A stretch of DNA of 64,000 nt from Porphyridium purpureum (taxonomy: Eukaryota): contig VRMN01000001.1 of NCBI GenBank assembly GCA_008690995.1, positions 620,001 through 684,000 on the forward strand, in the 5' to 3' direction. Both the position numbers and the translations under genes were made by a program. Below, one piece after another: positions 6,575-63,543 of the stretch (position 1 is the first letter of the stretch; each line of letters opens with the position of its first letter). The notes below the pieces were generated by a model. The model saw only the letters and a list, made by a program, of their open reading frames with translations, searched no databases and was not told the DNA's origin.

Positions 6575-6793
6575 CCCACTCTAGTGTCCCGCCGCGTCAC
6601 TCAAAAACCAAACAGCGAGTCTGCTTCCTCGTCCAGCCGCAGCTGCGCCTTTTTCATCCACAAGCTGTACCTATACTGTACTCAAAGTTCCTGAACCGTT
6701 AACCGTTTAGGGTTTCATGGCAGGTGGGCGGCGCGATGGCGAGGCGTCGGCGGCGCGACTTTCGTGGTCGATGAAGAGGGCGAGGAAGCGACG

Positions 6794-10451: not shown

Positions 10452-10679
10452 AATTAAAAGCCAGACCGGGCCAGACCAGATCCGATCCGATCCGATCGGC
10501 TCCGCTCCACTCTCGCTTCTCGACTTGCTTTCCCCCCTACTCGCGTCCGACAGGCGTCCCACACGAAACCAACATGCAATAACTGTACCTACAGCTGTAC
10601 ACCATACTGGTCAGGCCGGAAAACAAGAAAATGCGCAAACGAGCTGTTTTTAGAGTAAAAAAGTACAGTGCACTGTTTC

Positions 10680-16225: not shown

Positions 16226-17009
16226 CGCGACCGCGCACCTCCTCGTGCTGCCTCTCCTCACCACACACTGTTTCGCACCCGTGTCCACGACAAATCGCAC
16301 GTGTCTGCTCCCCACTGCGCACGCACAACACCGCACGCCACGTTCACGCTTCTCCACACCACGCACACATCCACCACCAACCCACCCCAACCCAAACCCC
16401 AATCCCATGCCGGCCTTCCTGTCCTTCTCCCTCACCCACTTTCGGTTTCCCGGTCCTTTCACCCACGCCACCTTCTAGGTCCATCATCAACACACAAACA
16501 CACACACAAAGTCCGACAAAAACACTGTACCCTATGAAAACGAAGTCAATTTATCACAAACCATTCACTGTACATCGGCACGCACACACACACACGTTGA
16601 CGAATCGACCGCACTACTGTACCCCATTTAAATTGAGGCCAGATTATCACAAACCGGTCACTGTACACCCACCCCCACCGCCACAATCTCCGTCGCGTTT
16701 GTGTGTTCTGCGGCTCCTGCGACGACTTGAAGACGCGCGCTTACTAGTACTAATCATCATACCACCTCGGTTTCCTCAGAGCTGCTTGGTTAAGGGTACG
16801 ACTGGTAGAAAATACCCTGATGTGTGCGCCCGCGGGGGTTTGAGCCGGATGGTTTGTATATGAAAATGGACGGTTTTGATAGGCGGGTGTGCGGTTCATG
16901 ATTGGGGCGATGCCGGTGGGTGAGGGGATTTGAGGGGTGAGAGAACAGAGGGAGGGAGGAAGCGAGAGAGTGGGAGAGCGGGAGGTAGAGACTCAGGGAG
17001 ACAGGGGGA

Positions 17010-28610: not shown

Positions 28611-29326
28611 TACGACTCCAAGTCCCAATTGTGTACTAGACGCTTTCCGCCACACCGCTTGTGCTGAGTGTGTAAATTACACAAACCCACCAACCCTCAT
28701 CAGTATACTAGCCCATACATGAATAACGCCACACAAACAACACATAGCAACCAGCGACAACACGTTCAGCGTCTCGCATCACGGCACGAACACGCGCGCA
28801 CAAACATGAGCGCACGCACGAGCAACACGCAAAACGCCCATCGCTCCATCGCTTCGTTTGTCTGTCGGTCTGGTTCATATCAAAAATAGTGCGCTGTGTG
28901 AGCAGCGTGTCTCGCTGTACTTGCGGTACACTTGGGACTGGCGCATCGGTGGAAATTCTGCCACTGTACCGAAACGGTACGCGAAGTGTACATCTGCTGT
29001 ACCTCGCTCTGCGCGTGCGCGCGAAAACGCAGAGAAACCGGAAAGTTGGCGCGAGATGGAAGAAGCGGAAGGGGGAGAGGGTGTGGGTGATGGAGGGGTG
29101 GGCGTCGGTGGGAGATGGATGGTGAGTGAGGATCATGTGTGTGCGCGGTGGTGTTGGGTGGGTAGGAAGTGGCGCCGCGCAGGAGCGACTTGGGCTGAGT
29201 AGCGTGGTGTGGGTGGGCCGGTGTGGACGGTTGCTGGTGTGTGCGCGTCGTCGCGCGCAGTCGCCGCCGAGCTGGCCGACTGGTGCAGGTGGGGTGCGGG
29301 GGAGTGCGCAAAGGAGAGGGTTGGGC

Positions 29327-49300: not shown

Positions 49301-50221
49301 GTTCTAAACACAATGCTGCTTGCGGCGGACGGTACCCCGACGTGGCTACTGGCCAAGTATTTTGGCGTGGTGGTGCGCCATTTGATGTCGATTCCCAACT
49401 TTTGGGAGTTGGATGTCGAATGCCGCTCCCGAGCTGGACAGATGGTACGCGTGCTTGAACAGGGTCTGGTCTATTCCGAGCAGCACAAGGCAGGTCCGGA
49501 ACAAGAAATGGACACGGCGTCAAAGCGAGAGAACGTGGCGCCAAAGATTGCAGACATCGAAGCTGCGCTTGCGGAGCGGTCTGCGCACAACTTGATGCAA
49601 GAAATGGCACTTTCGCTTTCCAGCGGTGTGCTCGTTGGCGGAACGTCTTCGAGGGCATTCAGCTCGTCGCTTACACTGTTGCTACTTCGAGATGCATCGC
49701 GCATTGCGCTTGTGAACTTGTTGTGCAGCCTGATCCGCGGCAAGGTTCCTAAAGCGATCAAGTCAAGCAGCCTGCTTCTGCGCAGAATTCTCGAGTACGC
49801 GAATGCTGACCAGACCAGGCATGAGGTCGGCACAGTGTGCGCCGAAGTGAACGCGCGAGTCCAATCCGCATGCAGCATGGACGCTGACGCATGCCTGAAT
49901 GACCTGCGTGCCTTCTCAAACACACTCGCTGCCGTAGTACTACCATCCGCCTTTGTATGTCTGGTGTCAGAGAATGAGCGCGCACGCGACGGCATTCACG
50001 ACCAAATGGTCGGCCTTATCAAAAGCGTACTGACGCTCTGCTCCGTGGACGTCTGTGCGGGCGTGGTCAGCGCCTTGTTCCCGGACCAGCTCTACTCTGT
50101 GCGCGACGCGCGAAGCCGCGCATTCATCGAGTCATTCCAGGCGCTGACAGACAGTAAGAGTCGTAAACTGCTCGCGCGCGAATTGGCTCTCGCCGTGCGG
50201 AGCTCAGACACCCAACACTGA
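46355..50221 (+). CDS. Large HEAT/ARM-repeat protein, probably a divergent importin-beta-family exportin (exportin-5-like)
   Basis: About 1290 aa and all-helical Leu-rich. N-terminal ALHTLY...ANQVLLEYK resembles IBN_N; RRRELI and VRNEACKAL resemble exportin-5 segments. Confidence 0.55.
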   Translation: MSLWQHTAGWVGDAALLAKMELATALHTLYAGEVRSANDYELANQVLLEYKQRCSLQDAIALWYESLPRACSGAYDALGASMLALQVFRDHLTSGSGCSPDGAAQLVLQTIQAFVHEVTVLAQTERVVVASVCLLAEKISDCASVAALRYWTEVWTLCLAPLWESQRSELHDEGLTFCVLASFFNELCLALSGNSRAVPAIVPARRRELIHSTFEVFRSVLFERVLEAISSSSERMSESFRRAGCIACYEAVATLLRIASAPFELVLRNYQTLLRPLWPSTRGVGFGTVFTDLNRAVLRCATELVHCSSSARPTSECDEWLRQMIVFLIGRMDRKTFFVALRRMEAGDESVQDGEELLLMAGLICDMARLHLFRCFLTPQEALRIMDTETLRLVVRLCELMLDFVVIPEVAELALPFWLLFFRQVADDHDEGCPTLSDPTPQHGEWRAYRSKLSEKLALGFLHAGFHALCRAWEEKAHNRGMKLEGASSLDEEDSTWDEILREVRCVSIPNQITHVVTLASRICGAEPFNREATPNRMAALLAGAVFGYFVAFVHVCESEPSSITGISTMQRLCATVNGLMTQGCLACCDLTGQSAWPENECIQKSSVFKAIVTLCSALYPATAVVHGKEKETRCASETVQCPHKYMNDMTSAFLDANTDLVLAAGTEGLRSLISNAKVRETLSAETRVQALASYAWLLKAVPTLVPAVLETVIQSCAHVGTRAEDVRVRNEACKALYKLAQKIPTDLLRPYLESVCATILSMLSGLELSFEEASASFLYDALGLISNAIPDQARRDSFTAGILRPCAIQLKQITELTCKAPSCLSQVLSTTGANDKHLRALLYYVRVVAHILRGLNGGELPSAGPTSETYPLLIAVAESVLVVSREVQKLSLSAGAGCDLMKPSLEEWLGCGMISLEEAGDTPEEQVRYLESTQLLPTFTVSAWRDPAFRAGQLRCRELLNNTLSTLGKILDLGVPEVPVHVLNTMLLAADGTPTWLLAKYFGVVVRHLMSIPNFWELDVECRSRAGQMVRVLEQGLVYSEQHKAGPEQEMDTASKRENVAPKIADIEAALAERSAHNLMQEMALSLSSGVLVGGTSSRAFSSSLTLLLLRDASRIALVNLLCSLIRGKVPKAIKSSSLLLRRILEYANADQTRHEVGTVCAEVNARVQSACSMDADACLNDLRAFSNTLAAVVLPSAFVCLVSENERARDGIHDQMVGLIKSVLTLCSVDVCAGVVSALFPDQLYSVRDARSRAFIESFQALTDSKSRKLLARELALAVRSSDTQH

Positions 50222-50435
50222 TGCTGTTTTTGGCAACGGAATTTTGGTCCGATTCTTTGCGAATCATTTATTGTTCATAGTAAAACGCTTTGGTTTCATA
50301 GGAAATCTCCACGCCTTGTCAGTACCAGGGGAGACGTCCCGATTTCAAGGGAAGGAGAAGGTAGACGAAGACAGAGAGACGGAGAGAGAAGGAGGAGGGG
50401 AGAGGAAGGGTGACAGAGCATTTAATCTAGAAAGG

Positions 50436-51779
50436 ATGGCCGGGAATGAGGGTGCGCTTATGCGCATGAACACAATGCAGAGGCAGGTGACGCACGACGC
50501 GGTGGTAGGCAGTCTCAAGGCGGAGTTGATGCAGCAGAAACTTCAGATCGAGGCCAAACTGGAGATGCTTGCCAAGCTGGAGGGCAAAACGGAGCAGCAG
50601 CAGCTGAATCTCCTCTTCAGTTTGTGGGATCTGGACGGTGACGGGCTGCTCTCGGTGGCTGAGTTGGCTCTGGGCATTAAGCGCGCGCTGACCACGCTTG
50701 AGCCGTCGCTGGATGAGATGACCGAGAAGAACGAGTTGCTCGAGTTCGCAATGGACGCCGCGTCGATCGCCATGATTAATTTTGGACAAGGTGACGAGGA
50801 GCCGCGCATCAAGAAGGAAGACTTTGCCACCGTGATCAAGGCGCTGTGCTCGAAGATCAACGTGCCATTCATGATCATTTCGGAGGCGTTGGTGCTTTCT
50901 TATGTAGGAGCATCGGCTGAAGAGCAGATCACAGAGGCAGTGGAGTTCCTGGCCCTCAAGCTGGTTGAAGGTGAAGCCGAGCAAGAGATCGCAGTCGAGA
51001 AGAAATTTCGCGATATCCTTGAAAATGAAACGATGCAGCACTTGTTCAAGAAGTTTGACAGGGATCAGGACATGTCTATTTCCTTCAAGGAGCTGGCATT
51101 GGGCCTTGACAAGCTGCGCGCTGGCGAAATGACGTTTGGTGACAGTATTGAGGCTGCCCTGAATGCTCTTCTTCTGTTCGACGAAGGAAACACGCGTACG
51201 CTTAACTACGTTCAGTTTGCCCGATTCATTCTTACGTTTTGCGCTGCGGCCGGCGCACCCTTCGCGGCAGTCGGGCCGAAGCTGCTCGAAATGGAGATTG
51301 GTGCGCCGGAGGAGCCCGAAGAACTCAGGAAGCTCAAGAGCGCGTTGCTGACTGACATCACAAGGGACATGAACCACTTGGACAAGGTCGTCAACACGGT
51401 ACAGGACGTGCGGTGCGAGCTGCTATTCCAGATGTTTGACACGGATGGATCTGGTGACGTGAGTTTCCAGGAGCTTGCAATTGGCTTGCGCTCGTTCAAT
51501 CCGTCCAGCTCTCTGAGCGATTCCGCCGCCGTCGCTGCCTCGATGATGCTCGCCTTTGACGCTGATGAGAACAATACGTTGAACCGCATGGAGTTCGCCG
51601 ACTTTTTGAACTCGTTTTGCGAAACGATCGGTGCTGATTTTGATGAGCTGGCTGACTATCTCGTCGTCGCACGCGCCGTCCAGGATTCCAGCTCGGAGCG
51701 CGATATTGCGCTTCTGGAGTCGATCCAGCCGGCAATTCTGGCGGATATCCATAAGACACGTGCCCAGCTGGAGGGGTAA
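50436..51779 (+). CDS. EF-hand protein built of three repeated EF-pair modules
   Basis: DLDGDGLLSVAE, DRDQDMSISFKE, DTDGSGDVSFQE and DADENNTLNRME loops. Confidence 0.88.
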   Translation: MAGNEGALMRMNTMQRQVTHDAVVGSLKAELMQQKLQIEAKLEMLAKLEGKTEQQQLNLLFSLWDLDGDGLLSVAELALGIKRALTTLEPSLDEMTEKNELLEFAMDAASIAMINFGQGDEEPRIKKEDFATVIKALCSKINVPFMIISEALVLSYVGASAEEQITEAVEFLALKLVEGEAEQEIAVEKKFRDILENETMQHLFKKFDRDQDMSISFKELALGLDKLRAGEMTFGDSIEAALNALLLFDEGNTRTLNYVQFARFILTFCAAAGAPFAAVGPKLLEMEIGAPEEPEELRKLKSALLTDITRDMNHLDKVVNTVQDVRCELLFQMFDTDGSGDVSFQELAIGLRSFNPSSSLSDSAAVAASMMLAFDADENNTLNRMEFADFLNSFCETIGADFDELADYLVVARAVQDSSSERDIALLESIQPAILADIHKTRAQLEG

Positions 51780-54607: not shown

Positions 54608-55765
54608 CTAACCCATTCCGTTCCCCTCCTTCTTGGAGCGTAAACTTCTTGCAAATCGCATGAGCGGCGTCTCCGTCTTTGACAGCTTGACGTTCTCGGA
54701 CTTGGCACGTCCCATGGATGTGGTGTGAGAATTCACAAGCGCAGCCCGGAGCTTCAGTATTTGCTGCAGCGCCTGATCCGCAGTTGGGCGTTTGGACGCG
54801 TCCTTGGCCAGCATTTTTACCACCATCTTTTTGAACGGCTCGCCGAGCAAAGCCCATTGCGGTGAAGCAAAACTTGGTTCATCCTGTCGGATCATTTCAG
54901 ACAGTTTAGCATCGTCCGGGTCTTCGAATGGGTAGACCTTTTCCACTGCGGTGTAAAGCATGATACCAGTGCACCAAATGTCTACTTTTTCAGGATTGTA
55001 CGGAACCCTGCGCAGTATTTCTGGCGCCTCATACGCGCGTGTCCCTGGCCAGTCTTCGTCCAAGAGCTTTGTTTCCTTGGGCTTGCGTCGATGCGCCATG
55101 CCAAAATCGATGAGTTTGATTACCTCGTCGCTGTTCGTGGAGTGCAGCATGAAGTTCTCTAGCTTGAGGTCACGGTGCGTGATGCCCTGCTTGTGGATGA
55201 ATGCCAAAATGGAAAGCACCTTTTCGGCAAAGTACATGGTCTGGGTCTCCGTAAATGCGCCCTTTGTTATTCTGTCCAACAAGTCGCCGCCGTTCAAAAA
55301 CTCGGTCACGACGTACATCGCGTTCCTGTCTTCAATGACCTCGTACAACCTCACAATGTTTGGGTGGTCCAGCTCCTGCAGAAACTGCACCTCATTCAAG
55401 AGCTCCTCACGGTGCTTGTCGCTTGCAATGCGCATGAACTTGATTGCGACAAAGTTGCCTAGCGCGCTGGAATCCTCCAACGTGCCGCCAGACTTACTCC
55501 CTGACCTTGACGGGCGCGGCCGATCGCGCTCACTTCCCGCATCGGACTTTTGCTCGCTCCGAGACGGCGTCTGCTGGCCTCCTGAGCGTCTGGTCGCCTT
55601 GAAAACCTCGCCCTGCCCGCCGGACGCCAAACTGGACAGCACCATGTACCCATTCTCCAAGAGCACCGGCTTCTGCAGCGACACGCCGACCTCGCTCGCA
55701 CGCGGCGTGCCACGAAAGCTCCCTAACCGCGCGGCCGACTGTCGTATCGACGCAATCCGCGACAT
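54608..55765 (-). CDS. Ser/Thr protein kinase, CAMK/CDPK-like
   Basis: GGQGEV, VAIK, HPNIVRLYE, HRDLKLEN, DFG, APE. Confidence 0.93.
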   Translation of the reverse strand: MSRIASIRQSAARLGSFRGTPRASEVGVSLQKPVLLENGYMVLSSLASGGQGEVFKATRRSGGQQTPSRSEQKSDAGSERDRPRPSRSGSKSGGTLEDSSALGNFVAIKFMRIASDKHREELLNEVQFLQELDHPNIVRLYEVIEDRNAMYVVTEFLNGGDLLDRITKGAFTETQTMYFAEKVLSILAFIHKQGITHRDLKLENFMLHSTNSDEVIKLIDFGMAHRRKPKETKLLDEDWPGTRAYEAPEILRRVPYNPEKVDIWCTGIMLYTAVEKVYPFEDPDDAKLSEMIRQDEPSFASPQWALLGEPFKKMVVKMLAKDASKRPTADQALQQILKLRAALVNSHTTSMGRAKSENVKLSKTETPLMRFARSLRSKKEGNGMG

Positions 55766-56733
55766 CGTCGTACAATCCGCCACACCCACTCTTCCGTTCC
55801 CTTCTCTTCAACCCGTTTACTTTCTCTCCCGTTCTCTTGTTTCCCCCTCTAGCACAACTCCACTCACTTTCCGCACCATCAACTCCGGTTCCATCTTTAC
55901 TTTTTTTTTGAACCGTTTTGGAGCACTGTACACTACACCAAACGCCGTTCCGTGTACTGTACCCTACTCGTTTTGTGGATGAAATCAGTGGGCTAGCGGC
56001 AATTCGCCAGAATCATTTCATACGCGCGGTGGCGTTTTTCAAAACAACGCACGCCCATATGAAAAAAACGCACGTTTCTATATGAGGCGATATTGGGGAC
56101 AACACTTCTGTTTTCACTGTACCTCTGGTTTGACTTTGGTGGTGGTGTGTGACGAACACGCAAGCCGGGCTGTGACGCACGTCGCATGTGGTGTGGCCGC
56201 GAGTGTGGGACACGCAAGCGGTCGGAGAGGCAGAGGCAGAGGCATGGACAGTGGCGTGGACGTTGGGTTCCTGCAGCTGCGGCTCAACTGGCGTGCATCA
56301 TGCTCGGCTGGATCAACGAGGTGACGCGATTTCGTGACACGAAGATCTCGTGCCGCGGGTGGTTCCGCGCGCATTCGTGGTCAACCGAGCCGTCGCTGAG
56401 CATTTCGCATCACACGCCTGGACAGAAGCGGGTAGCAGCAAAGCAGCAGCAGAAACCGAGAACGCCGACAACAAGGCATTTTCCAGGAACGGCTGGGACT
56501 AGATGGAAAAACTGGAAGGTCGAGAAAGGATGGATAGAGCGAGAGAGAGAGAGAGACTGTATAAAGTTGCTCAACGACAGCGGCGTCGACAAGCAGGCAA
56601 GCAAGCGGCTGCGGCTCGTGCCGGGCGAGTTGCGGCTCAGGTCACAGCCCGAATGATGGCGCATTGAAAAGGCCGAAATCGCGTCTTTAAAATGTGTTCT
56701 TGAATACAAGGCGTTGCGCCAAGAGAACCAGGG

Positions 56734-57538
56734 CATGGATTAAAAGTGTTCCGGTCCGAGAGACGCCCTGGGTGTACACCTAGAGGTACGGCGTCTCGGA
56801 ATTCTTTGAGGTACAGGGGCTTTTTCGCCCGCGTGGTTTTTTACCCTGTACCTCTGGTTTGTGCATTGTTGTCTTTCGCCCCGAGGAGCCGAAGTCGCGT
56901 GTCCGAGGGAAGCAGGAGCCGCTTGGCGGCCGGCCAGCACCCATTGAGCCGCTTGCTGACGTGGCTGGCTGTGGCTTCGTTCGTGGAACGAACGGAGGAA
57001 AGCCCAGCCTTTGGGAGAAATAATTTCTCCCTTCCGCGTCAAGGACAGCAAGGACGGCGGGGTATATAATGGGCGCGGGCCCGTGCGGTTCCCCGGATTT
57101 CTAGAGAGAAGAAGAAGAAGAGGCAAGGGAGTACGACACAGAGAATAAAGGAAGAGTTGTTCTTTGGTGTCGGGTGCCTGGGCGTGGTCGTCGGAAGGCG
57201 TGGGGCCTTTTGCTGAGCCTGTGTAGCAGAGCCAGCAGCACATCGTGTCTGGGGGGTTTCGGTGCTCTTGGAGCACTGAAGGCAGACGGCGGCTTTGTCC
57301 GTTACGACACCCTGCCCCTGTCGAGACCGGTGCTGTCTGTGCCGACGCGAAAGGCAATAGTAGAGGCCCTATACGTTGGATTTTCCACGCCCCGGGTATT
57401 CGTCGTCTGTGTTGTGTGCGTCGTGTGGTTGTGTTCTCTGTGCTGTGTGCGTCGTGTTGCTGGGGTTCGGTCATCTGAGAAGGGTTGTGTCATCCGGGTT
57501 CGTGCGCTTGTCATCATCAAGCGTGCGAGAATTTAAAG
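56734..57538 (+). repeat. 5' LTR (805 bp)
   Basis: Direct repeat of 61924-62729; TATATAA near 57063. Confidence 0.95.
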
Positions 57539-57550
57539 TGGTATCATCGC
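57539..57550 (+). other. Primer-binding site (tRNA-iMet-like)
   Basis: TGGTATCA(TCGC) directly after the 5' LTR. The canonical iMet PBS is TGGTATCAGAGC. Confidence 0.8.
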
Positions 57551-57560
57551 ATCGGCGAAG

Positions 57561-58517
57561 ATGGATTCTGAGGGAATGGACGTGCAGGGCCTGCAGGGCG
57601 GCGCGTCGTGGATTGAAGCTTTCAACCAGCTTCATGCTCGTATCGGAGGACAAGAAATGATGATTGTGCAGCTGCAGGAGGGAAATCGCCTCTTGCAGGA
57701 GATGCTGCAGAATGTGATGCATCAGGCATCTGTGTCAGCTGGTCCCGGCGAAACGGAAAGGACCGTTGCATCGCTGATTGGACGCAGCTTGAGGAAATAC
57801 GACGGACAGCGCGACAAACTCGTTGTGAACGAGTGGTTGTCGAGGATGAAGCAAGACTTGGACATGTGCATGCCAGCTGGAGCGCTGGAGTCTCAGAAGG
57901 TGATCGTAGCGTCGCGCTTCTTTGAGAAGGATGCCGCGCTGTTGTGGGCAGCTCGCCCTGAGGAACAGAGGATGGCACTGGCCGAGTCCGGTTGGAATGC
58001 GTTCGCGAACTTCGTGCGGACGGCATTTGAGCCGCCGCAGGCATACCTGACTGCTCGAACGAACTTGTATCAGCTGAAGCAGGGCAAGATGACTGTTGCT
58101 GAGTTTGAGCAGCGCCTGAGGATGGTGGCCCTGTCAGTGGATAGTGTGACGGATGCCGAGCTCAACACCATCTTCACTCTCGGCCTGAAGGAGAAGCTTC
58201 GCCTTGAGGTGGCGCGTCAGGACACGAAGACGCTGGAAGAGTCGCTGAGGGCGGCGTTGGCTGCGGAGCAGGTTGGTAGGTTTGGAGGAGACATGAGGGA
58301 GGCTTTTCATGGCGCCTCTAGTCCAAACTACCGGAACAGCTCGTCGTATGCCGGGACGGCGCCAATGGATTTGGGCGTCGTGGAGAAACGCCAGCCGGAG
58401 AAGCGCAAGCATGCGGACATGGGCAAAGTCAGATGCTACCATTGCGGGCAGCGCGGCCACATCAAACCCAATTGCCCAAAGCGGAATGGGCACTTGGCGG
58501 GAGGCCCGGGAAACTAA
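57561..58517 (+). CDS. gag: Gag (retrotransposon capsid plus CCHC zinc knuckle)
   Basis: LKQGKMTVAEFEQR, APMDLG, CYHCGQRGHIKPNC. Confidence 0.92.
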   Translation: MDSEGMDVQGLQGGASWIEAFNQLHARIGGQEMMIVQLQEGNRLLQEMLQNVMHQASVSAGPGETERTVASLIGRSLRKYDGQRDKLVVNEWLSRMKQDLDMCMPAGALESQKVIVASRFFEKDAALLWAARPEEQRMALAESGWNAFANFVRTAFEPPQAYLTARTNLYQLKQGKMTVAEFEQRLRMVALSVDSVTDAELNTIFTLGLKEKLRLEVARQDTKTLEESLRAALAAEQVGRFGGDMREAFHGASSPNYRNSSSYAGTAPMDLGVVEKRQPEKRKHADMGKVRCYHCGQRGHIKPNCPKRNGHLAGGPGN

Positions 58518-58569
58518 AACCTCGAGGGAGAAGTTGGGAGGTGCACTCGAGGGGAACGGAACCTCCCGG
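58508..58569 (+). other. -1 programmed ribosomal frameshift signal (slippery heptamer plus H-type pseudoknot)
   Basis: G GGA AAC lies just before the gag TAA. Stem 1 is CCTCGAG/CTCGAGG and stem 2 is GGGAGGT/ACCTCCC. Confidence 0.85.
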
Positions 58570-61500
58570 GATGGGCTTTGTAGGTGAGGTCTGGCGCGCT
58601 GATGCGGCGTCGAGGTTGCTCTACAAGCGTGGAACTTTAGATGGCGAGTCTGTCCAATTTCTGGTGGACAGCGGAGCATCGCACAATTTTCTTGGATCTC
58701 GCTTTGTCGGCAGATTTGAAGGGCCCGAGAACGGAATGGTCAAGCTTGCGGGTGGGCAAAGTGTCTCAGTGCATGGCCCGGTGTTGAAGCATGTTGATCT
58801 TGGGTTCTGGAAAGGGCCGGTCAAGTTTTATGTCGGGCCTCTGCAAATGGATTCAATTCTCGGGTGGGACTGGCTGAGTCGCGTGAACCCGAGGATTGAT
58901 TGGCAGAGGGGTTCGATGGACTTGGAACTTGAAAATGTGGAAGATTGTGCGATGGTAAATGTCGTGGACGCTCTTTCCGAGTCAAGCGGAAATCAAGCGT
59001 ACGATGGAGAAGAGGAGAGTGCCAGTGAAGAGGTCGAAGGAAAGATGGCCGGGATGGAACATGCGTTGACTCACATGCCGATGCGGGATGATTGTGAGAC
59101 GTGTGTTGTGGCCAAGATCAAGAGCCGACCAGCAAGAAGGCTGGAGAAGGACTTGTCCACTTTGTCGTTCAATGACGAAGTTGGGATCGACCTGGTGGAG
59201 CCCGGACGTAACGTGGAAGCCATCGATGGAGCGAAGTACATACTGACGCACATCGATAGAGCGACGAGGTGGGCCACACTGGCAGGATTGAGAGCCAAAA
59301 CGCATACGGCGGTTGCTGAAGCTTGGACAAGCGTGCAAGCCGGGCGAGGATGGCCAAAGGTACTGAGGACAGATGATGGAAACGAGTTCAGGGGAAATGT
59401 GAGCAATTTGGTACGGGAGAATCTCGTGAAGCATGAGATTGGGGTCCCACATAGACCGAATAGCCACGCTGAACAGGAACGTTTCCATCATACTTTGAAT
59501 CAGGGGGTACGAGCAAATCTCCTGCAGTCTGGGCTGGGAAAGCGGTGGTTTTTGCATGCCGCTCAGCATTTCGTCTTCATGTTCAATCGGCTGCACCCAG
59601 ACAAGAGGTCTGGGAAGTCTCCGTATGAAATGAGGTACGGTGAGAGATGGAAGCGGGGGAAGGTAGCAGTACCATTTGGGTGCAAGGTGGTTTTCAAGAA
59701 TGATCAACCTGAGAACAAGTATGCACCCAGAGGAAAGATTGGAGTCCTTGTTGGAGTTGCGGAGCATCCGCTGGCAATCTGGGTCCTTCCTCAGGAGGAG
59801 TGGACGAGTGCGGCACCGAGGCTGACTCGCACTCAGGACTTCAAGGCGTTCCCTGAAGTGTTTCCAATGCGGACTTTGGAAACAAGGGATGACGAGGAGG
59901 TCTCGGCACGTGAGGGTGAAATCGACTTTCACTCTAGGCAGGAAGAACCGGATAGTCAAGAGACTATGGTGTTGCCTACGAATACGGCCGAGGCGCGTGT
60001 GTCCGGGAACTTGGAGGAGGACGTTCCCCTACCTATTGGAAGAAGGGGGAAACGAAAACCCAGTGTAGCTTGGAGCCGGGAAGAGGATCAGGCCATCATG
60101 GATGGCTTACGGCTCTTTGGCTGGGGGAAGTGGGAAAGAACTCTGCAAGAATACAAGGCAGTGTTTCGCAATTCAAGAAACGGAAAGGATGTGCGAGCCC
60201 GGGCCCATAATATGGGCCTCTCGGAGGAAAATTGGAAGCAACGCACAGGAGTTGCTCCAGAAACACCGCAATTGAACTTGACAACTTTGTTGCAGACGAG
60301 CCAAGCTCTAGCTTCTTCGGCTGGAAGAGAAGCCATGCAAAAAGAAGTGGACTTGATGATCCGATTCAAGGTATGGGATGAGCAACCTATTTCAAGGGAA
60401 GAAGCTCTCAAGGTCCCAGGCGCACGATTTGTGCGGACACACTTTATATTCGGATTGAAGTTCGCTGAGCTTCCGGAGGAGTTTCGCAAGGTCAAGTGTC
60501 GGCTTGTTGCTGGTGGAAATAGGATTTGGGATGCCTCAGGGAAGGTCACTCAGGATGTGTTTGACTATGAGGTGCCCGCGGGCCTGTCTGCAATCAGAAT
60601 GCTGATAGCTTTGGCCGCGATCCTGGGATTGAAAATCGTGTCGTTCGATGTGACGTCGGCGTACTTACACGCTGACTTGTCAGGACCACCGACGTTTGCC
60701 ATGTTGCCCCGTCACGTTCCAGGAGGAGGTGATGGACTTGTCGTTCGCTTAAGGAGGGCGCTTTATGGCTTACCAAGAAGCGGGTCTGACTTTTCCATCG
60801 ATGCCCGCAGAAGACTTCAAAAGTTCGGGTGGGATTTGATTCACGGCGAGAAGAACGTATACGTGAAAAAGATGGCGGGAAGTGCATCTGTTGCACTCTT
60901 GGCCTTGTATGTCGACGATGACCTGCTCGCGTGTGCCGAGAAGGATCGGGGTGAGATATTTCGAGAGTTGAGGTCAGAGTTCCTCATTGAGAAGGAGCCA
61001 GAAGTCCTCTCGGAAGGAGCCCCGTTAAGGTTCCTAGGTCTCATGATCTCGGAGTCGGCGACACGGTTTTCGTTGGATCATGATCACTACCAAACCTTGG
61101 TGGTGAAGGAATTTGAAGAAGAGCTTGGGCAGGTGCTGCGAGCAGTGAAGTCACCAGGCGAGAAGATGAATGCTGACGCTGTATTGGATGTTCAAGTCGA
61201 ACATGGGCATCTGAAAATACGCGAGCATGTTGGGAGGCTGCTGTGGTTGGCCAGGACGGTCAGACCGGATATCTCCTACGCAGTTGGAGTGGTGGCTCGG
61301 TATGTGGATAGCTGGAACGTCGCAGCTGAGAGACTCCTGGTTCGCGTCATGCAATACTTGAAGGTTCCTCGTGAGCCACTTGAGTATTTGCGGATGACGT
61401 CATTGAAGGTCGGTGACGTAAGCGTCTTGGGCTATGCTGATGCCGACTTTGCTGGATGCCCGGAAACGCGCAAGTCAACGTCTGGAAGAGTGACGTACTT

Positions 61501-61933
61501 GGTCGCGGGTGGAAACAAGTATCTGGTCGATTGGAGCTCCAGAAGGCAACGCTTTGTTAGCTCTTCGACCTCTGAGTCTGAGATGGCCGCTCTGGAAGAA
61601 ACGGTGCAGTTATCTTTGTTTCCGGCATTGTCGTTTCTTCGAAGCGTGCAGGAGGGGGATTATGCGTTGACCCTGCTTTGTGATAGTCAAGTTGTTCTCC
61701 GTGCGGTCGAGATGGGATATTCGCCAAAGTTGCATCACATGGCAGTAACCAGAGCCACGGACTTGGCGTGGATACACCAAATTTGCGAGAAGCAGAAGTT
61801 GGTGACATTGGAGTATGTGAGGACGGGAGAAAACGTGTCCGACTTGATGACAAAGCCTTTGTTTCCGGAAGGTCACATCAGGTGTTGGAACATGTTACGC
61901 GTCCCTCAGATCGGAAGGAGGAGCATGGATTAA
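58514..61933 (+). CDS. pol: Pol polyprotein PR-IN-Myb-RT-RNaseH, in the -1 frame relative to gag
   Basis: LVDSGAS; HALTH...CETC; IDL/TDDGNEF/QER DDE triad; FDVTSAYL, LYGLPRSG, YVDD; YADADFAG..ETRKSTSG. Confidence 0.95.
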   Translation, partial: LKPRGRSWEVHSRGTEPPGMGFVGEVWRADAASRLLYKRGTLDGESVQFLVDSGASHNFLGSRFVGRFEGPENGMVKLAGGQSVSVHGPVLKHVDLGFWKGPVKFYVGPLQMDSILGWDWLSRVNPRIDWQRGSMDLELENVEDCAMVNVVDALSESSGNQAYDGEEESASEEVEGKMAGMEHALTHMPMRDDCETCVVAKIKSRPARRLEKDLSTLSFNDEVGIDLVEPGRNVEAIDGAKYILTHIDRATRWATLAGLRAKTHTAVAEAWTSVQAGRGWPKVLRTDDGNEFRGNVSNLVRENLVKHEIGVPHRPNSHAEQERFHHTLNQGVRANLLQSGLGKRWFLHAAQHFVFMFNRLHPDKRSGKSPYEMRYGERWKRGKVAVPFGCKVVFKNDQPENKYAPRGKIGVLVGVAEHPLAIWVLPQEEWTSAAPRLTRTQDFKAFPEVFPMRTLETRDDEEVSAREGEIDFHSRQEEPDSQETMVLPTNTAEARVSGNLEEDVPLPIGRRGKRKPSVAWSREEDQAIMDGLRLFGWGKWERTLQEYKAVFRNSRNGKDVRARAHNMGLSEENWKQRTGVAPETPQLNLTTLLQTSQALASSAGREAMQKEVDLMIRFKVWDEQPISREEALKVPGARFVRTHFIFGLKFAELPEEFRKVKCRLVAGGNRIWDASGKVTQDVFDYEVPAGLSAIRMLIALAAILGLKIVSFDVTSAYLHADLSGPPTFAMLPRHVPGGGDGLVVRLRRALYGLPRSGSDFSIDARRRLQKFGWDLIHGEKNVYVKKMAGSASVALLALYVDDDLLACAEKDRGEIFRELRSEFLIEKEPEVLSEGAPLRFLGLMISESATRFSLDHDHYQTLVVKEFEEELGQVLRAVKSPGEKMNADAVLDVQVEHGHLKIREHVGRLLWLARTVRPDISYAVGVVARYVDSWNVAAERLLVRVMQYLKVPREPLEYLRMTSLKVGDVSVLGYADADFAGCPETRKSTSGRVTYLVAGGNKYLVDWSSRRQRFVSSSTSESEMAALEETVQLSLFPALSFLRSVQEGDYALTLLCDSQVVLRAVEMGYSPKLHHMAVTRATDLAWIHQICEKQKLVTLEYVRTGENVSDLMTKPLFPEGHIRCWNMLRVPQIGRRSMD
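61913..61923 (+). other. Polypurine tract
   Basis: GGAAGGAGGAG immediately before the 3' LTR. Confidence 0.8.
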
Positions 61934-62729
61934 AAGTGTTCCGGTCCGAGAGACGCCCTGGGTGTACACCTAGAGGTACGGCGTCTCGGAATTCTTTGAG
62001 GTACAGGGGCTTTTTCGCCCGCGTGGTTTTTTACCCTGTACCTCTGGTTTGTGCATTGTTGTCTTTCGCCCCGAGGAGCCGAAGTCGCGTGTCCGAGGGA
62101 AGCAGGAGCCGCTTGGCGGCCGGCCAGCACCCATTGAGCCGCTTGCTGACGTGGCTGGCTGTGGCTTCGTTCTGTGGAACGAACGGAGGAAAGCCCAGCC
62201 TTTGGGAGAAATAATTTCTCCCTTCCGCGTCAAGGACAGCAAGGACGGCGGGGTATATAATGGGCGCGGGCCCGTGCGGTTCCCCGGATTTCTAGAGAGA
62301 AGAAGAAGAAGAGGCAAGGGAGTACGACACAGAGAATAAAGGAAGAGTTGTTCTTTGGTGTCGGGTGCCTGGGCGTGGTCGTCGGAAGGCGTGGGGCCTT
62401 TTGCTGAGCCTGTGTAGCAGAGCCAGCAGCACATCGTGTCTGGGGGGTTTCGGTGCTCTTGGAGCACTGAAGGCAGACGGCGGCTTTGTCCGTTACGACA
62501 CCCTGCCCCTGTCGAGACCGGTGCTGTCTGTGCCGACGCGAAGGGCAATAGTAGAGGCCCTATACGTTGGATTTTCCACGCCCCGGGTATTCGTCGTCTG
62601 TGTTGTGTGCGTCGTGTGGTTGTGTTCTCTGTGCTGTGTGCGTCGTGTTGCTGGGGTTCGGTCATCTGAGAAGGGTTGTGTCATCCGGGTTCGTGCGCTT
62701 GTCATCATCAAGCGTGCGAGAATTTAAAG
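61924..62729 (+). repeat. 3' LTR (806 bp)
   Basis: By eye it differs from the 5' LTR only by a 1-nt indel and one A/G substitution. Confidence 0.95.
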
Positions 62730-62877
62730 CAGGGTTTAAACTGTACCTCCACTGTTGGGTGTTCTGTATTTTCACCAGCAGGGCAACGCGGCTGAGAAGT
62801 TGGCGATGGATGGAGGGATAGGGCAGGGGAAGAAGGGCGAGAAGGGTGAGTGTTGTGAATCGTTGGTCGGAGTCAAG

Positions 62878-63543
62878 ATGAGCGCGGAGCTCATGGAGCT
62901 GGCCAGCATGGACTGGACAAACACAGAGCACATGATGGGAACGACGATCATGGCGACGGCGTTCGACGGCGGTGTGGTGATGGGTGCGGACTCCCGGACA
63001 ACAACTGGCTCGTACATTGCGAATCGCGTCAGCGATAAAATCACCCCGATCACAGACAAGGTGTGGTGCTGCCGTTCCGGATCAGCAGCCGATACCCAGG
63101 CGATCTCGGATTACGTGCGGCTCTACACCGCCCAGCACGCCATCGAGCTGGGCCAGGAGCCGCGCGTCAAGACGGTGGCAAATTTATTCAGAGAAATCTG
63201 CTACTCAAATAAGGCGAATCTGATGGCCGGGATCATCTGCGCCGGCTGGGACCAGTTCAGCGGCGGCCAGGTCTACAACATTACGCTCGGGGGTAGCTGC
63301 GTGCAGCAGCCATTCTCGATTGGCGGCTCTGGTTCGACCTACATCTACGGGTACTGCGACTCGAACTTTCGCGAGAATATGACGCGCGACGAGTGCGTCG
63401 AGTTTGTTAAGCACGCTCTCGCGCTCGCTATGGCGCGCGATGGCTCAAGCGGCGGTGTGATCCGCATGGTGATCATTGACTCGTCCGGTGTGCAAAAAGT
63501 GTTTATTCCAGGAGACAAGCTCCCGATGGCATGGCAGGGATAA
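62878..63543 (+). CDS. PSMB6: 20S proteasome subunit beta1 (PSMB6/PRE3)
   Basis: G|TTIMA propeptide cleavage site, [46 protein letters not shown]. Confidence 0.96.

Follow-up and report, generated by a model that had tools for sequence, protein, structure and literature searches.

A window of 64,000 nucleotides of the Porphyridium purpureum genome (contig VRMN01000001.1, positions 620,001 to 684,000 of the forward strand) contains a complete, recently transposed LTR retrotransposon at 56734-62729, in which a Gag and a protease assigned to the Ty3/gypsy type by their sequences are joined to a reverse transcriptase (RT) and an RNase H assigned to the Ty1/copia type (Table 1). Quite probably, the gag-protease block of a copia ancestor was replaced by that of a gypsy element. 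Copia and gypsy elements are classified by their RT and are regarded as lineages between which core genes are not exchanged. A family that is young, polymorphic, and present in multiple copies, and that combines gypsy capsid and protease with copia enzymes, would mean that the particle, the protease, and the enzymes of replication can be exchanged as modules. It would also offer a live system for studying the adaptation of a protease to cleavage sites foreign to it and the recognition of foreign RNA by a capsid.

Table 1. Features of the element and its flanks, in positions of the window.
Feature	Position	Strand	Remarks
5' target-site duplication CAGGG	56729..56733	+	empty-site joint 56728->62730, 5 letters fit both sides, run X1
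5' LTR, 805 bp	56734..57538	+	starts CAT, ends AAG; ends fixed by empty site and second insertion
Primer-binding site TGGTATCATCGC	57539..57550	+	immediately 3' of 5' LTR
gag, 318 aa	57561..58517	+	Ty3/gypsy-type capsid ~57774-58274, PMDLG motif, one CCHC knuckle 58434-58475
Slippery heptamer G GGA AAC	58508..58514	+	just upstream of gag stop; likely -1 frameshift into pol
Aspartic protease, Ty3/gypsy type	58610..58933	+	Pfam, profiles, trees
Acidic linker, likely gypsy/copia junction	~58934..59059	+	between last gypsy-type and first copia-type motif
Integrase, copia-leaning	59060..59890	+	short H-X3-H-X6-C-X2-C finger, D..D-35-E core, SH3-like C-terminal part
Myb/SANT-like domain	60068..60214	+	Pfam Myb_DNA-binding; best solved match human TRF1
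Reverse transcriptase, Ty1/copia type	60281..61300	+	boundaries approximate; RVT_2, trees, AU test
RNase H, Ty1/copia type	61400..61933	+	motifs, profiles
Polypurine tract GGAAGGAGGAG	61913..61923	+	adjoins 3' LTR
3' LTR, 806 bp	61924..62729	+	1 mismatch and 1 indel vs 5' LTR
3' target-site duplication CAGGG	62730..62734	+	matches 5' copy
Host motif CTGTAC, candidate target landmark	62741..62746	+	6 bp past duplication, upstream of proteasome-subunit gene

Everything that defines an LTR retrotransposon is present, namely two LTRs (identical at 804 of 805 positions), a primer site, a polypurine tract, gag and pol, and a target duplication. A second insertion, with the duplication TGCAC and loose ends at 61924 and 57540, helps to fix the LTR ends, and at both insertion sites the element ends in CA...AG instead of TG...CA, which is the usual but not universal form in copia elements. 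The 5' LTR carries a TATA-like TATATAA at 57063 and AATAAA at 57144, and the pol stop falls inside the first 10 bp of the 3' LTR. The primer-binding site is likely to be one for initiator tRNA-Met, and it agrees at 9 of 12 letters with the tRNA-Met site that PMC3587641 gives for GalEa. Its complement was also sought in the LTR, and since no match of at least 6 letters was found, there is no sign of self-priming. The 20-base LTR end gave two bacterial matches, neither extending past 25 bases, which were taken as chance. The first-pass annotation, made from the letters of the window alone, had described a single feature at 57561..61933; its motifs lie within that interval, but the whole element is larger and its gag and pol occupy two frames, not one.

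The insertion site is empty in sequencing runs X1, X3, and X5 and filled in X8 and X14, a presence/absence polymorphism. The family of the element has multiple copies, and its closest relatives with a name come from P. purpureum. According to cluster lists and sequencing runs, from which copy number and insertion sites were taken, two families share the same layout (protein clusters of 17 and 16 members), and Gag, protease, and integrase stand in one gene model in 13 of the 15 listed cluster members of the family. The idea that a one-off nested insertion, a deletion product, or an assembly joint has been mistaken for a transposing family draws on the nested and fused gene models that occur among the matches (P0091, P0007) and on the practice of the reference database REXdb, whose authors discarded chimeric-looking elements as likely mispredictions (PMC6317226). 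It can practically be dismissed, and is refuted, by the single pair of near-identical LTRs with a 5-bp duplication and open frames, by the polymorphic site and the two families, and by contigs of two studies that bridge the protease-integrase junction, one from run X1 (57512-60169, 11 letters differ) and one from the RNA run X19 (57509-59222). This copy itself may be impaired, because it reads YVDDD where YVDDG stands in 12 of the 13 RT-bearing proteins listed for the family; all four runs compared have 60921 A>G.

The gypsy character of the first part of the element, proposed in the first-pass annotation from motifs in Gag (LKQGKMTVAEF at 58074, APMDLG at 58359, CCHC at 58434) and protease (FLVDSGASHNF, with DSGAS at 58667, and ILGWDWL..NPRIDW at 58856), all of which are in place, is borne out by curated models. 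Pfam assigns Gag to Retrotrans_gag (1.2e-10) and Ty3_capsid (2.3e-8), and the protease to Asp_protease_2 (2.1e-7), gag-asp_proteas (4.2e-7), and RVP_2 (2.9e-5), while the copia-type Gag (PF14223), the copia-type protease (PF22936), and Pol_BBD have no match at E<=1. A grouping of Gag and protease with copia profiles, which the annotation had named as the finding that would speak against it, was looked for, and both side with gypsy (Gag 100.5 vs. 0.5 bits, protease 74.2 vs. 16.4 bits), although these gypsy scores are inflated, since the gypsy references were chosen by their likeness to the query. In leave-one-out runs, the same profiles assigned the references correctly in 53/53 cases for protease, 39/41 for Gag, 40/40 for integrase, and 38/38 for RNase H.

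A search of 1.84 billion proteins with a Gag-protease profile returned 1877 matches, of which the best 150 were listed, 148 of them outside the family. Among 30 long matches that were scanned, RVT_1 lies downstream in 19 and RVT_2 in none. On the 148, our own profiles find a gypsy RT in 31 and a copia RT in two, one of which has its RT upstream of its Gag, the other being a 12-bit cross-match. The motif PM[DE][LIV] occurs in 74 of the 148 and in none of the 76 Pol-search proteins. For the protease taken by itself, tree support is modest: it is nested within gypsy in free trees, including a quick tree, and a copia-like (RT-like) placement is rejected (p 0.043-0.048, ~0.045), but on ~105 columns a placement on the gypsy-copia stem is not rejected (p 0.305; p 0.763 with a quick search, which did not recover its own best tree). 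The predicted capsid fold does not discriminate between the superfamilies. Foldseek ranks dArc1, Ty3, and PEG10 first and the Copia capsid 27th, for a model built from gypsy-side homologues, and VIA-align gives the same Z of 10.9 for the Copia capsid 8vvw (rmsd 5.5, 151 aligned) and the dArc1 capsid (rmsd 3.7, 160 aligned).

The second part of the element points the other way. Its order of domains, PR-IN-RT-RH, is that of copia and not the gypsy order PR-RT-RH-IN, and the copia motifs noted earlier behind the integrase were found again (DVTSAY at 60647, LYGL at 60761, YVDD at 60908, DADFAG at 61439). The RT matches RVT_2 at 4.2e-16, and among 81 matches of the Pol search, RVT_2 is present in 78, RVT_1 in one, and neither in two. 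Rows lacking the needed motif were left out (4 from the RT set, 14 from the integrase set, and 16 from the RNase H set). In trees, the RT is nested within copia as sister to the copia element P0013 (SH-aLRT 98), whose protease is of copia type (27.8 bits copia vs. 12.2 gypsy), and AU tests reject both a position of the RT inside gypsy (p 7e-65) and one on the part of the stem toward gypsy (p 0.016). RNase H scores 93.7 bits on the copia profile vs. -0.6 on the gypsy one. The integrase leans toward copia, with 95.9 vs. 61.9 bits and copia proteins as its best matches outside the family; its core lies on the stem of the tree, outside both sampled groups (copia support 77), and SH3_retrovirus is weak here and reaches 3.9e-7 in the sister P0007. 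By profiles, Pfam, and trees together, the two halves receive opposite superfamily assignments, the pattern that the first-pass annotation had named as supporting chimerism.

The gag frame and the pol frame (open 58322-61933) differ, and the heptamer G GGA AAC together with this arrangement makes a -1 frameshift from gag into pol likely. The site reads G GAA AAC in the four runs compared (58510 G>A). Downstream of it, a stimulatory RNA structure was sought, and the fold is no better than that of shuffles (z 0.83, in a test of structures other than pseudoknots). GC3 is 0.70 in gag vs. 0.50-0.61 in the parts of pol, and the protease groups with pol, so that composition marks no junction.

Recombination is likely the best explanation of the opposite assignment of the two halves, as the first-pass annotation had suggested. 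Its proposed junction, an acidic linker, does lie between the last gypsy-type and the first copia-type motif and is the likely point of joining, but it extends over ~58934-59059 and not ~58920-59050; in the sister family (P0008) its conservation is poor. Because a protease has to cleave the Gag it belongs with, Gag, slip site, and protease would move as a single block. Such a swap would be old, because no gypsy relative exceeds ~40% identity, and would predate the split of at least two Porphyridium families. As for the donor, none was identified: the best match is P0087, a gypsy element also from P. purpureum, but the tree does not join it to the family, and P0087 is not supported as a same-genome donor. 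In searches bounded by word sharing, length, and rank, the same mixed layout was found outside Porphyridium in none of the 81 Pol matches, 6 protease-integrase matches, and 148 best-listed Gag-protease matches, and in none of 36 metagenomic frames scanned from 31 of 55 loci, and viral contigs gave no matches. At one metagenome locus, L017, a copia-type protease stands with a weak match to Retrotrans_gag (E 0.0067).

In such an element, one RNA starting in the 5' LTR would be translated into Gag, and a minority of ribosomes would slip by -1 at the heptamer to produce Gag-Pol. The RNA would be packaged by the gypsy-type capsid and the polyprotein cut by the gypsy-type protease. The copia RT, for which initiator tRNA-Met and the polypurine tract are the likely primers, would then make cDNA with flush ends, which the copia-leaning integrase would insert with a 5-bp duplication despite the CA...AG ends.

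Two other origins have to be weighed against the swap. An old copia branch could have kept an ancestral gypsy-like Gag and protease, with the other copia lineages changing theirs, and both the stem placement of the protease, whose tree alone is compatible with a basal position, and that of the integrase core fit this course of events, as does the single fold common to all capsids (in this comparison and in PMC12440569). It is nevertheless distinctly unlikely, as the RT is nested in copia and not basal, all 34 copia proteases taken from RT relatives, that of the sister P0013 among them, favor the copia profile, and free protease trees put the element among the gypsy rows. That fast evolution or convergence made a copia Gag and protease look gypsy-like would agree with the long branches of the family in every tree and its 25-41% identity to outside relatives, but in divergent copia proteases the copia score falls and the gypsy score does not rise (the top gypsy score of a copia row is 18.4 bits vs. 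74-75 here). Moreover, the two domains agree with each other, with the PMDLG motif, and with the layout in two frames, and Pfam models, curated independently of our choices, give the same answer, which makes this reading very unlikely and already largely refuted.

Among known systems, the element is nearest to Ty1/copia (Pseudoviridae), in a little-described branch with P0013, with which it shares the short HHCC integrase finger, and L001, and more loosely Symbiodinium RE1 (P0077). It has the copia domain order, RVT_2-type RT, RNase H, SH3-like integrase tail, and 5-bp duplication, and is unlike copia in its Gag and protease, CA...AG ends, Myb domain, and separate gag and pol frames linked by a -1 slip site. 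Splicing is the means used by plant and fly copia, and Ty5 has one frame (PMC5580714). On the Ty3/gypsy side (Metaviridae), its kin are chromovirus-like elements including P0087, and the capsids of Ty3, PEG10, and dArc, with which it shares Retrotrans_gag/Ty3_capsid, PMDLG, one CCHC, and a protease ending in ILG..WL...NP.IDW. The slip site GGGAAAC also occurs in PEG10. Unlike gypsy elements, it is without RVT_1, gypsy RNase H, H2C2 finger, and chromodomain, and its integrase precedes the RT.

Mixed elements of other kinds are on record. A red-algal copia element described in 2008 (cited in PMC5445492) reportedly has a gypsy-like integrase; judged by description, it is set apart from the present one, in which Gag and protease are the gypsy-like part. 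It has been filed near GalEa (PMC3587641). Mixed traits are also shared with Gmr1, a group of gypsy elements whose domains stand in the copia order, and with CoDi-A, which are copia elements with a chromodomain on the integrase and for which the passages of PMC2774666 consulted report no gypsy Gag or protease. Gmr1 is defined by a gypsy RT with the integrase ahead of it, whereas the RT here is copia, and CoDi-A has a captured chromatin-reading chromodomain where the Myb domain sits here. Ends other than TG...CA are known from Troyka, which differs in its CG...CG ends, 3-bp duplications, and gypsy domain order (PMC12440569). A description of the present family was found nowhere in the literature searched, paper supplements and Repbase entries being places that could hold one.

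The Myb-like domain (Pfam 1.5e-6, 28.7 bits, over the cut-off of 24.4; TRF1 at E 9e-4) is located between integrase and RT, where copia integrases carry targeting signals, and is present in 12 of 15 listed family proteins and in the distant P0009, vs. 0 of 15 in the sister family. A fold search gave no match at E<=0.001, from a poor single-sequence model (pLDDT 63). As a putative DNA-binding domain, it may help to choose the insertion site, possibly steering insertion toward promoters, which is a lead only. Eight insertion flanks were compared, and three have CTGTA at one offset, a candidate sign of targeted integration. Targeting of telo-boxes was rejected: the site reads CAGGGTTT, yet GGGTTT occurs in only two of eight right flanks, and the P. 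purpureum telomere repeat was not found by the probes used in PMC3622300. A rather unlikely but far-reaching reading is an active mosaic of three parts: capsid and protease from gypsy, enzymes from copia, and a TRF-like Myb domain captured by an integrase that uses non-TG/CA ends. This integrase would insert at a fixed distance from the host promoter motif CTGTAC and re-use its sites, with tandem stacks of copies as the result. If true, position-specific integration would have a new route, and it would be proven that capsid-protease blocks swap between superfamilies without losing activity. The two frames with their slip site, the TRF-like Myb domain, the CA...AG ends, and the CTGTA flanks go beyond the first-pass annotation; domain, odd ends, and flank motif together give a lead, open to testing, on how integration may be targeted in an algal genome dense with genes.

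The stretch singled out in the first-pass annotation holds the coding sequence of a complete, 5996-bp LTR retrotransposon (table), a real and recently mobile element. Its LTRs, 805 and 806 bp long, are identical except for one mismatch and one indel. A 5-bp duplication, CAGGG, lies on both sides of the element; its limits are given by the empty site of sequencing run X1, in which 56728 is joined to 62730 with five letters compatible with either side. The insertion site is polymorphic, being empty in runs X1, X3 and X5 and filled in X8 and X14. A slip heptamer, which we take to be a PEG10-type signal, precedes the gag stop; a stimulatory fold 3' of it was searched for by folding, and none was found. 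The element ends in CA...AG, without an inverted repeat, and these ends were confirmed at a second insertion site with the duplication TGCAC, whereas most LTR elements end in TG...CA (excerpt of PMC12440569). The family is active now or was so very recently. Contigs from two RNA runs span much of the element, a coverage that alone is no proof of transcription. The window copy itself may be impaired, given that its RT reads YVDDD (D at 60921); of the 13 RT-bearing proteins listed for the family, 12 have YVDDG.

Features of the element and its surroundings (window positions)
Feature	Position	Remark
Complete element	56734-62729	
LTR ends	56734-56736; 62727-62729	CAT; AAG
Primer site		directly after 5' LTR, flush
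gag	57561-58517	
Slip heptamer		G GGA AAC, just before gag stop
pol	58322-61933	open; -1 frame relative to gag
Linker	58934-59059	putative right-hand joint
Myb domain	60068-60214	between integrase and RT
Polypurine tract		abuts 3' LTR, flush
CTGTAC beside window copy	62741-62746	
CTGTAC in LTR	56846	
CTGTAC clusters	6665-6676; 10583-10595; 16525-16661; 28915-28997; 55926-56117	intergenic, ahead of several host frames
Protein-kinase gene	54608-55807	
Proteasome-subunit gene	62740-63543	

The initial reading of Gag and protease as gypsy-type is borne out by Pfam families, neighboring RTs and profile scores, the protease tree alone being modest. With each domain scanned alone, Gag matches Retrotrans_gag and Ty3_capsid, and the protease matches three gypsy/retroviral protease families, all above the Pfam cut-offs; no copia Gag or protease model was matched in the Pfam scan of the element. 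Atlas agrees on both (0.94 and 0.95). A Gag-protease profile run against 1.84 billion proteins gave 1877 matches, and 148 of the best 150 lie outside the family. Among 30 long matches scanned from these 150, the gypsy-type RT model RVT_1 follows Gag-protease in 19 and its copia counterpart RVT_2 in none. Our own RT profiles found a gypsy RT in 31 of the 148 and a copia RT in 2, namely a 12-bit cross-match and protein P0091, a fused gene model with the copia RT upstream of Gag-protease. Leave-one-out profiles classed 53/53 reference proteases and 39/41 Gags correctly, and the element scores 74.2 (gypsy) versus 16.4 (copia) for protease and 100.5 versus 0.5 for Gag. The gypsy references for these profiles were selected for resembling the query, which makes the neighbor count across the library and the Pfam result the less biased evidence. 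Free protease trees, on an alignment of about 105 columns, nest the element among gypsy rows; on the same alignment, a position beside the unnamed copia P0013 is rejected, but only at p 0.043-0.048, and one between the gypsy and copia groups is not rejected (p 0.305 and p 0.763 in two analyses). Foldseek ranks the capsid model (pLDDT 95) with dArc1, Ty3 and PEG10, Copia coming 27th, but VIA-align puts Copia (8vvw) level with the dArc1 capsid, both at Z 10.9.

The closest named relatives of the element are Porphyridium purpureum proteins, up to 96% identical, and its family is a cluster of 17 proteins. A sister family forms clusters of 16 (Pol) and 4 (Gag) at 61-71% identity, and a third, distant Porphyridium family is represented by P0009. 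The Pol search gave 81 matches, with RVT_2 in 78, RVT_1 in 1 and neither in 2, and a 47-row tree makes the RT of the three families sister to P0013 (SH-aLRT 98). In a 23-row tree, placement of the RT inside gypsy is rejected (p 7e-65), as is placement on the gypsy side of the stem (p 0.016). Of the copia-type integrase, RT and RNase H proposed at first, the RT stands by its tree and the RNase H by its profile (93.7 copia versus -0.6 gypsy). The integrase assignment is less clear: its profile leans to copia (95.9 versus 61.9), its best matches outside the family are copia, it carries a copia-type SH3-like tail, and its short zinc finger resembles that of P0013, but its tree leaves it on the stem, separate from the gypsy rows (99) and without firm placement in copia (77).

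The element is therefore a copia by its RT and yet no ordinary member, because its Gag and protease do not pass as copia-type. Since the RT is nested in copia, where all 34 proteases extracted are copia-type, gag-protease replacement is the simplest account; the recombination between superfamilies already suspected is supported, and gag-protease was likely swapped between them. The gag-protease block of a copia ancestor would have been replaced through template switching or through nested insertion and deletion; its right-hand joint probably lies in the linker. Gag, slip site and protease would travel as a natural block, because a protease has to process the Gag it comes with and slipping fixes the proportion of Gag to Pol; in known plant and fly copia elements, by contrast with the slip site predicted here, splicing sets this proportion (parts of PMC5580714). 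The best-scoring gypsy match, P0087, comes from the same species, but a Gag-protease tree of 72 rows leaves it apart from the element's family and so gives no support to it as the donor.

A feature unreported in the first-pass annotation is a Myb domain over Pfam's cut-off, whose best solved match is TRF1. It is present in 12 of the 15 listed proteins of the element's family and in P0009, and is absent from all 15 of the sister family, where a coiled-coil-like stretch takes its place. A chromodomain occupies this position in CoDi-A copia and in chromoviruses, as far as the sections compared describe them. In the literature covered, with most subscription papers and Repbase outside it, no description was found of gypsy Gag and protease in a copia element, nor of a Myb domain on an LTR integrase. 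Peddigari et al. (2008) reportedly described a red-algal copia with a gypsy-like integrase. Sections of other reports treat Gmr1 and CoDi-A (PMC2774666), GalEa-like elements in Porphyridium cruentum and Porphyra (PMC3587641), and recombination within copia, chimeric-looking elements being removed (PMC6317226); parts of PMC5445492, PMC3622300, PMC2806351 and PMC11541908 were also compared. The P. purpureum genome paper gives a recent LTR expansion with Copia and Gypsy totals, and no description of individual elements was found in its passage and table rows (PMC6811547).

Targeted integration is a lead. Among the matches listed, CTGTA stands exactly 6 bp past the duplication in 3 of 8 single-contig right flanks (runs X1, X3, X19 and X20), a fourth has CTGGAC, the remaining four have nothing, and none of 3 left flanks carries CTGTA. 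Two merged X5 rows, a shifted end in X4 and an X5 junction inside the LTR were left out, the last carrying the motif at the same offset. A 5-mer shared thrice at one offset in eight random stretches arose in 0.14-0.42% of draws, for a pattern spotted after the fact in a small sample. From its clusters, CTGTAC may be a host promoter element. In run X4 (window 56680-57600) an LTR end is joined to an LTR start through five bases, and several family gene models bear consecutive accession numbers, together hinting at insertion hot spots, as expected with site re-use. Myb as its sole cause is weakened, because the Myb-less family takes part too.

The flanking protein-kinase and proteasome-subunit genes point away from each other with the element between them, a position that may alter their expression. 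Elsewhere in the window, an intronless frame (50148-51779) shows several EF-hand-like motifs, read by eye. Among the metagenome copia elements, L017:2600-6100 has a weak Retrotrans_gag match (E 0.0067), yet its protease and integrase are copia-type. In five others (L016, L021, L026, L034 and L041), the long frame resumes in the same frame past a single stop codon, which suggests readthrough or another genetic code.
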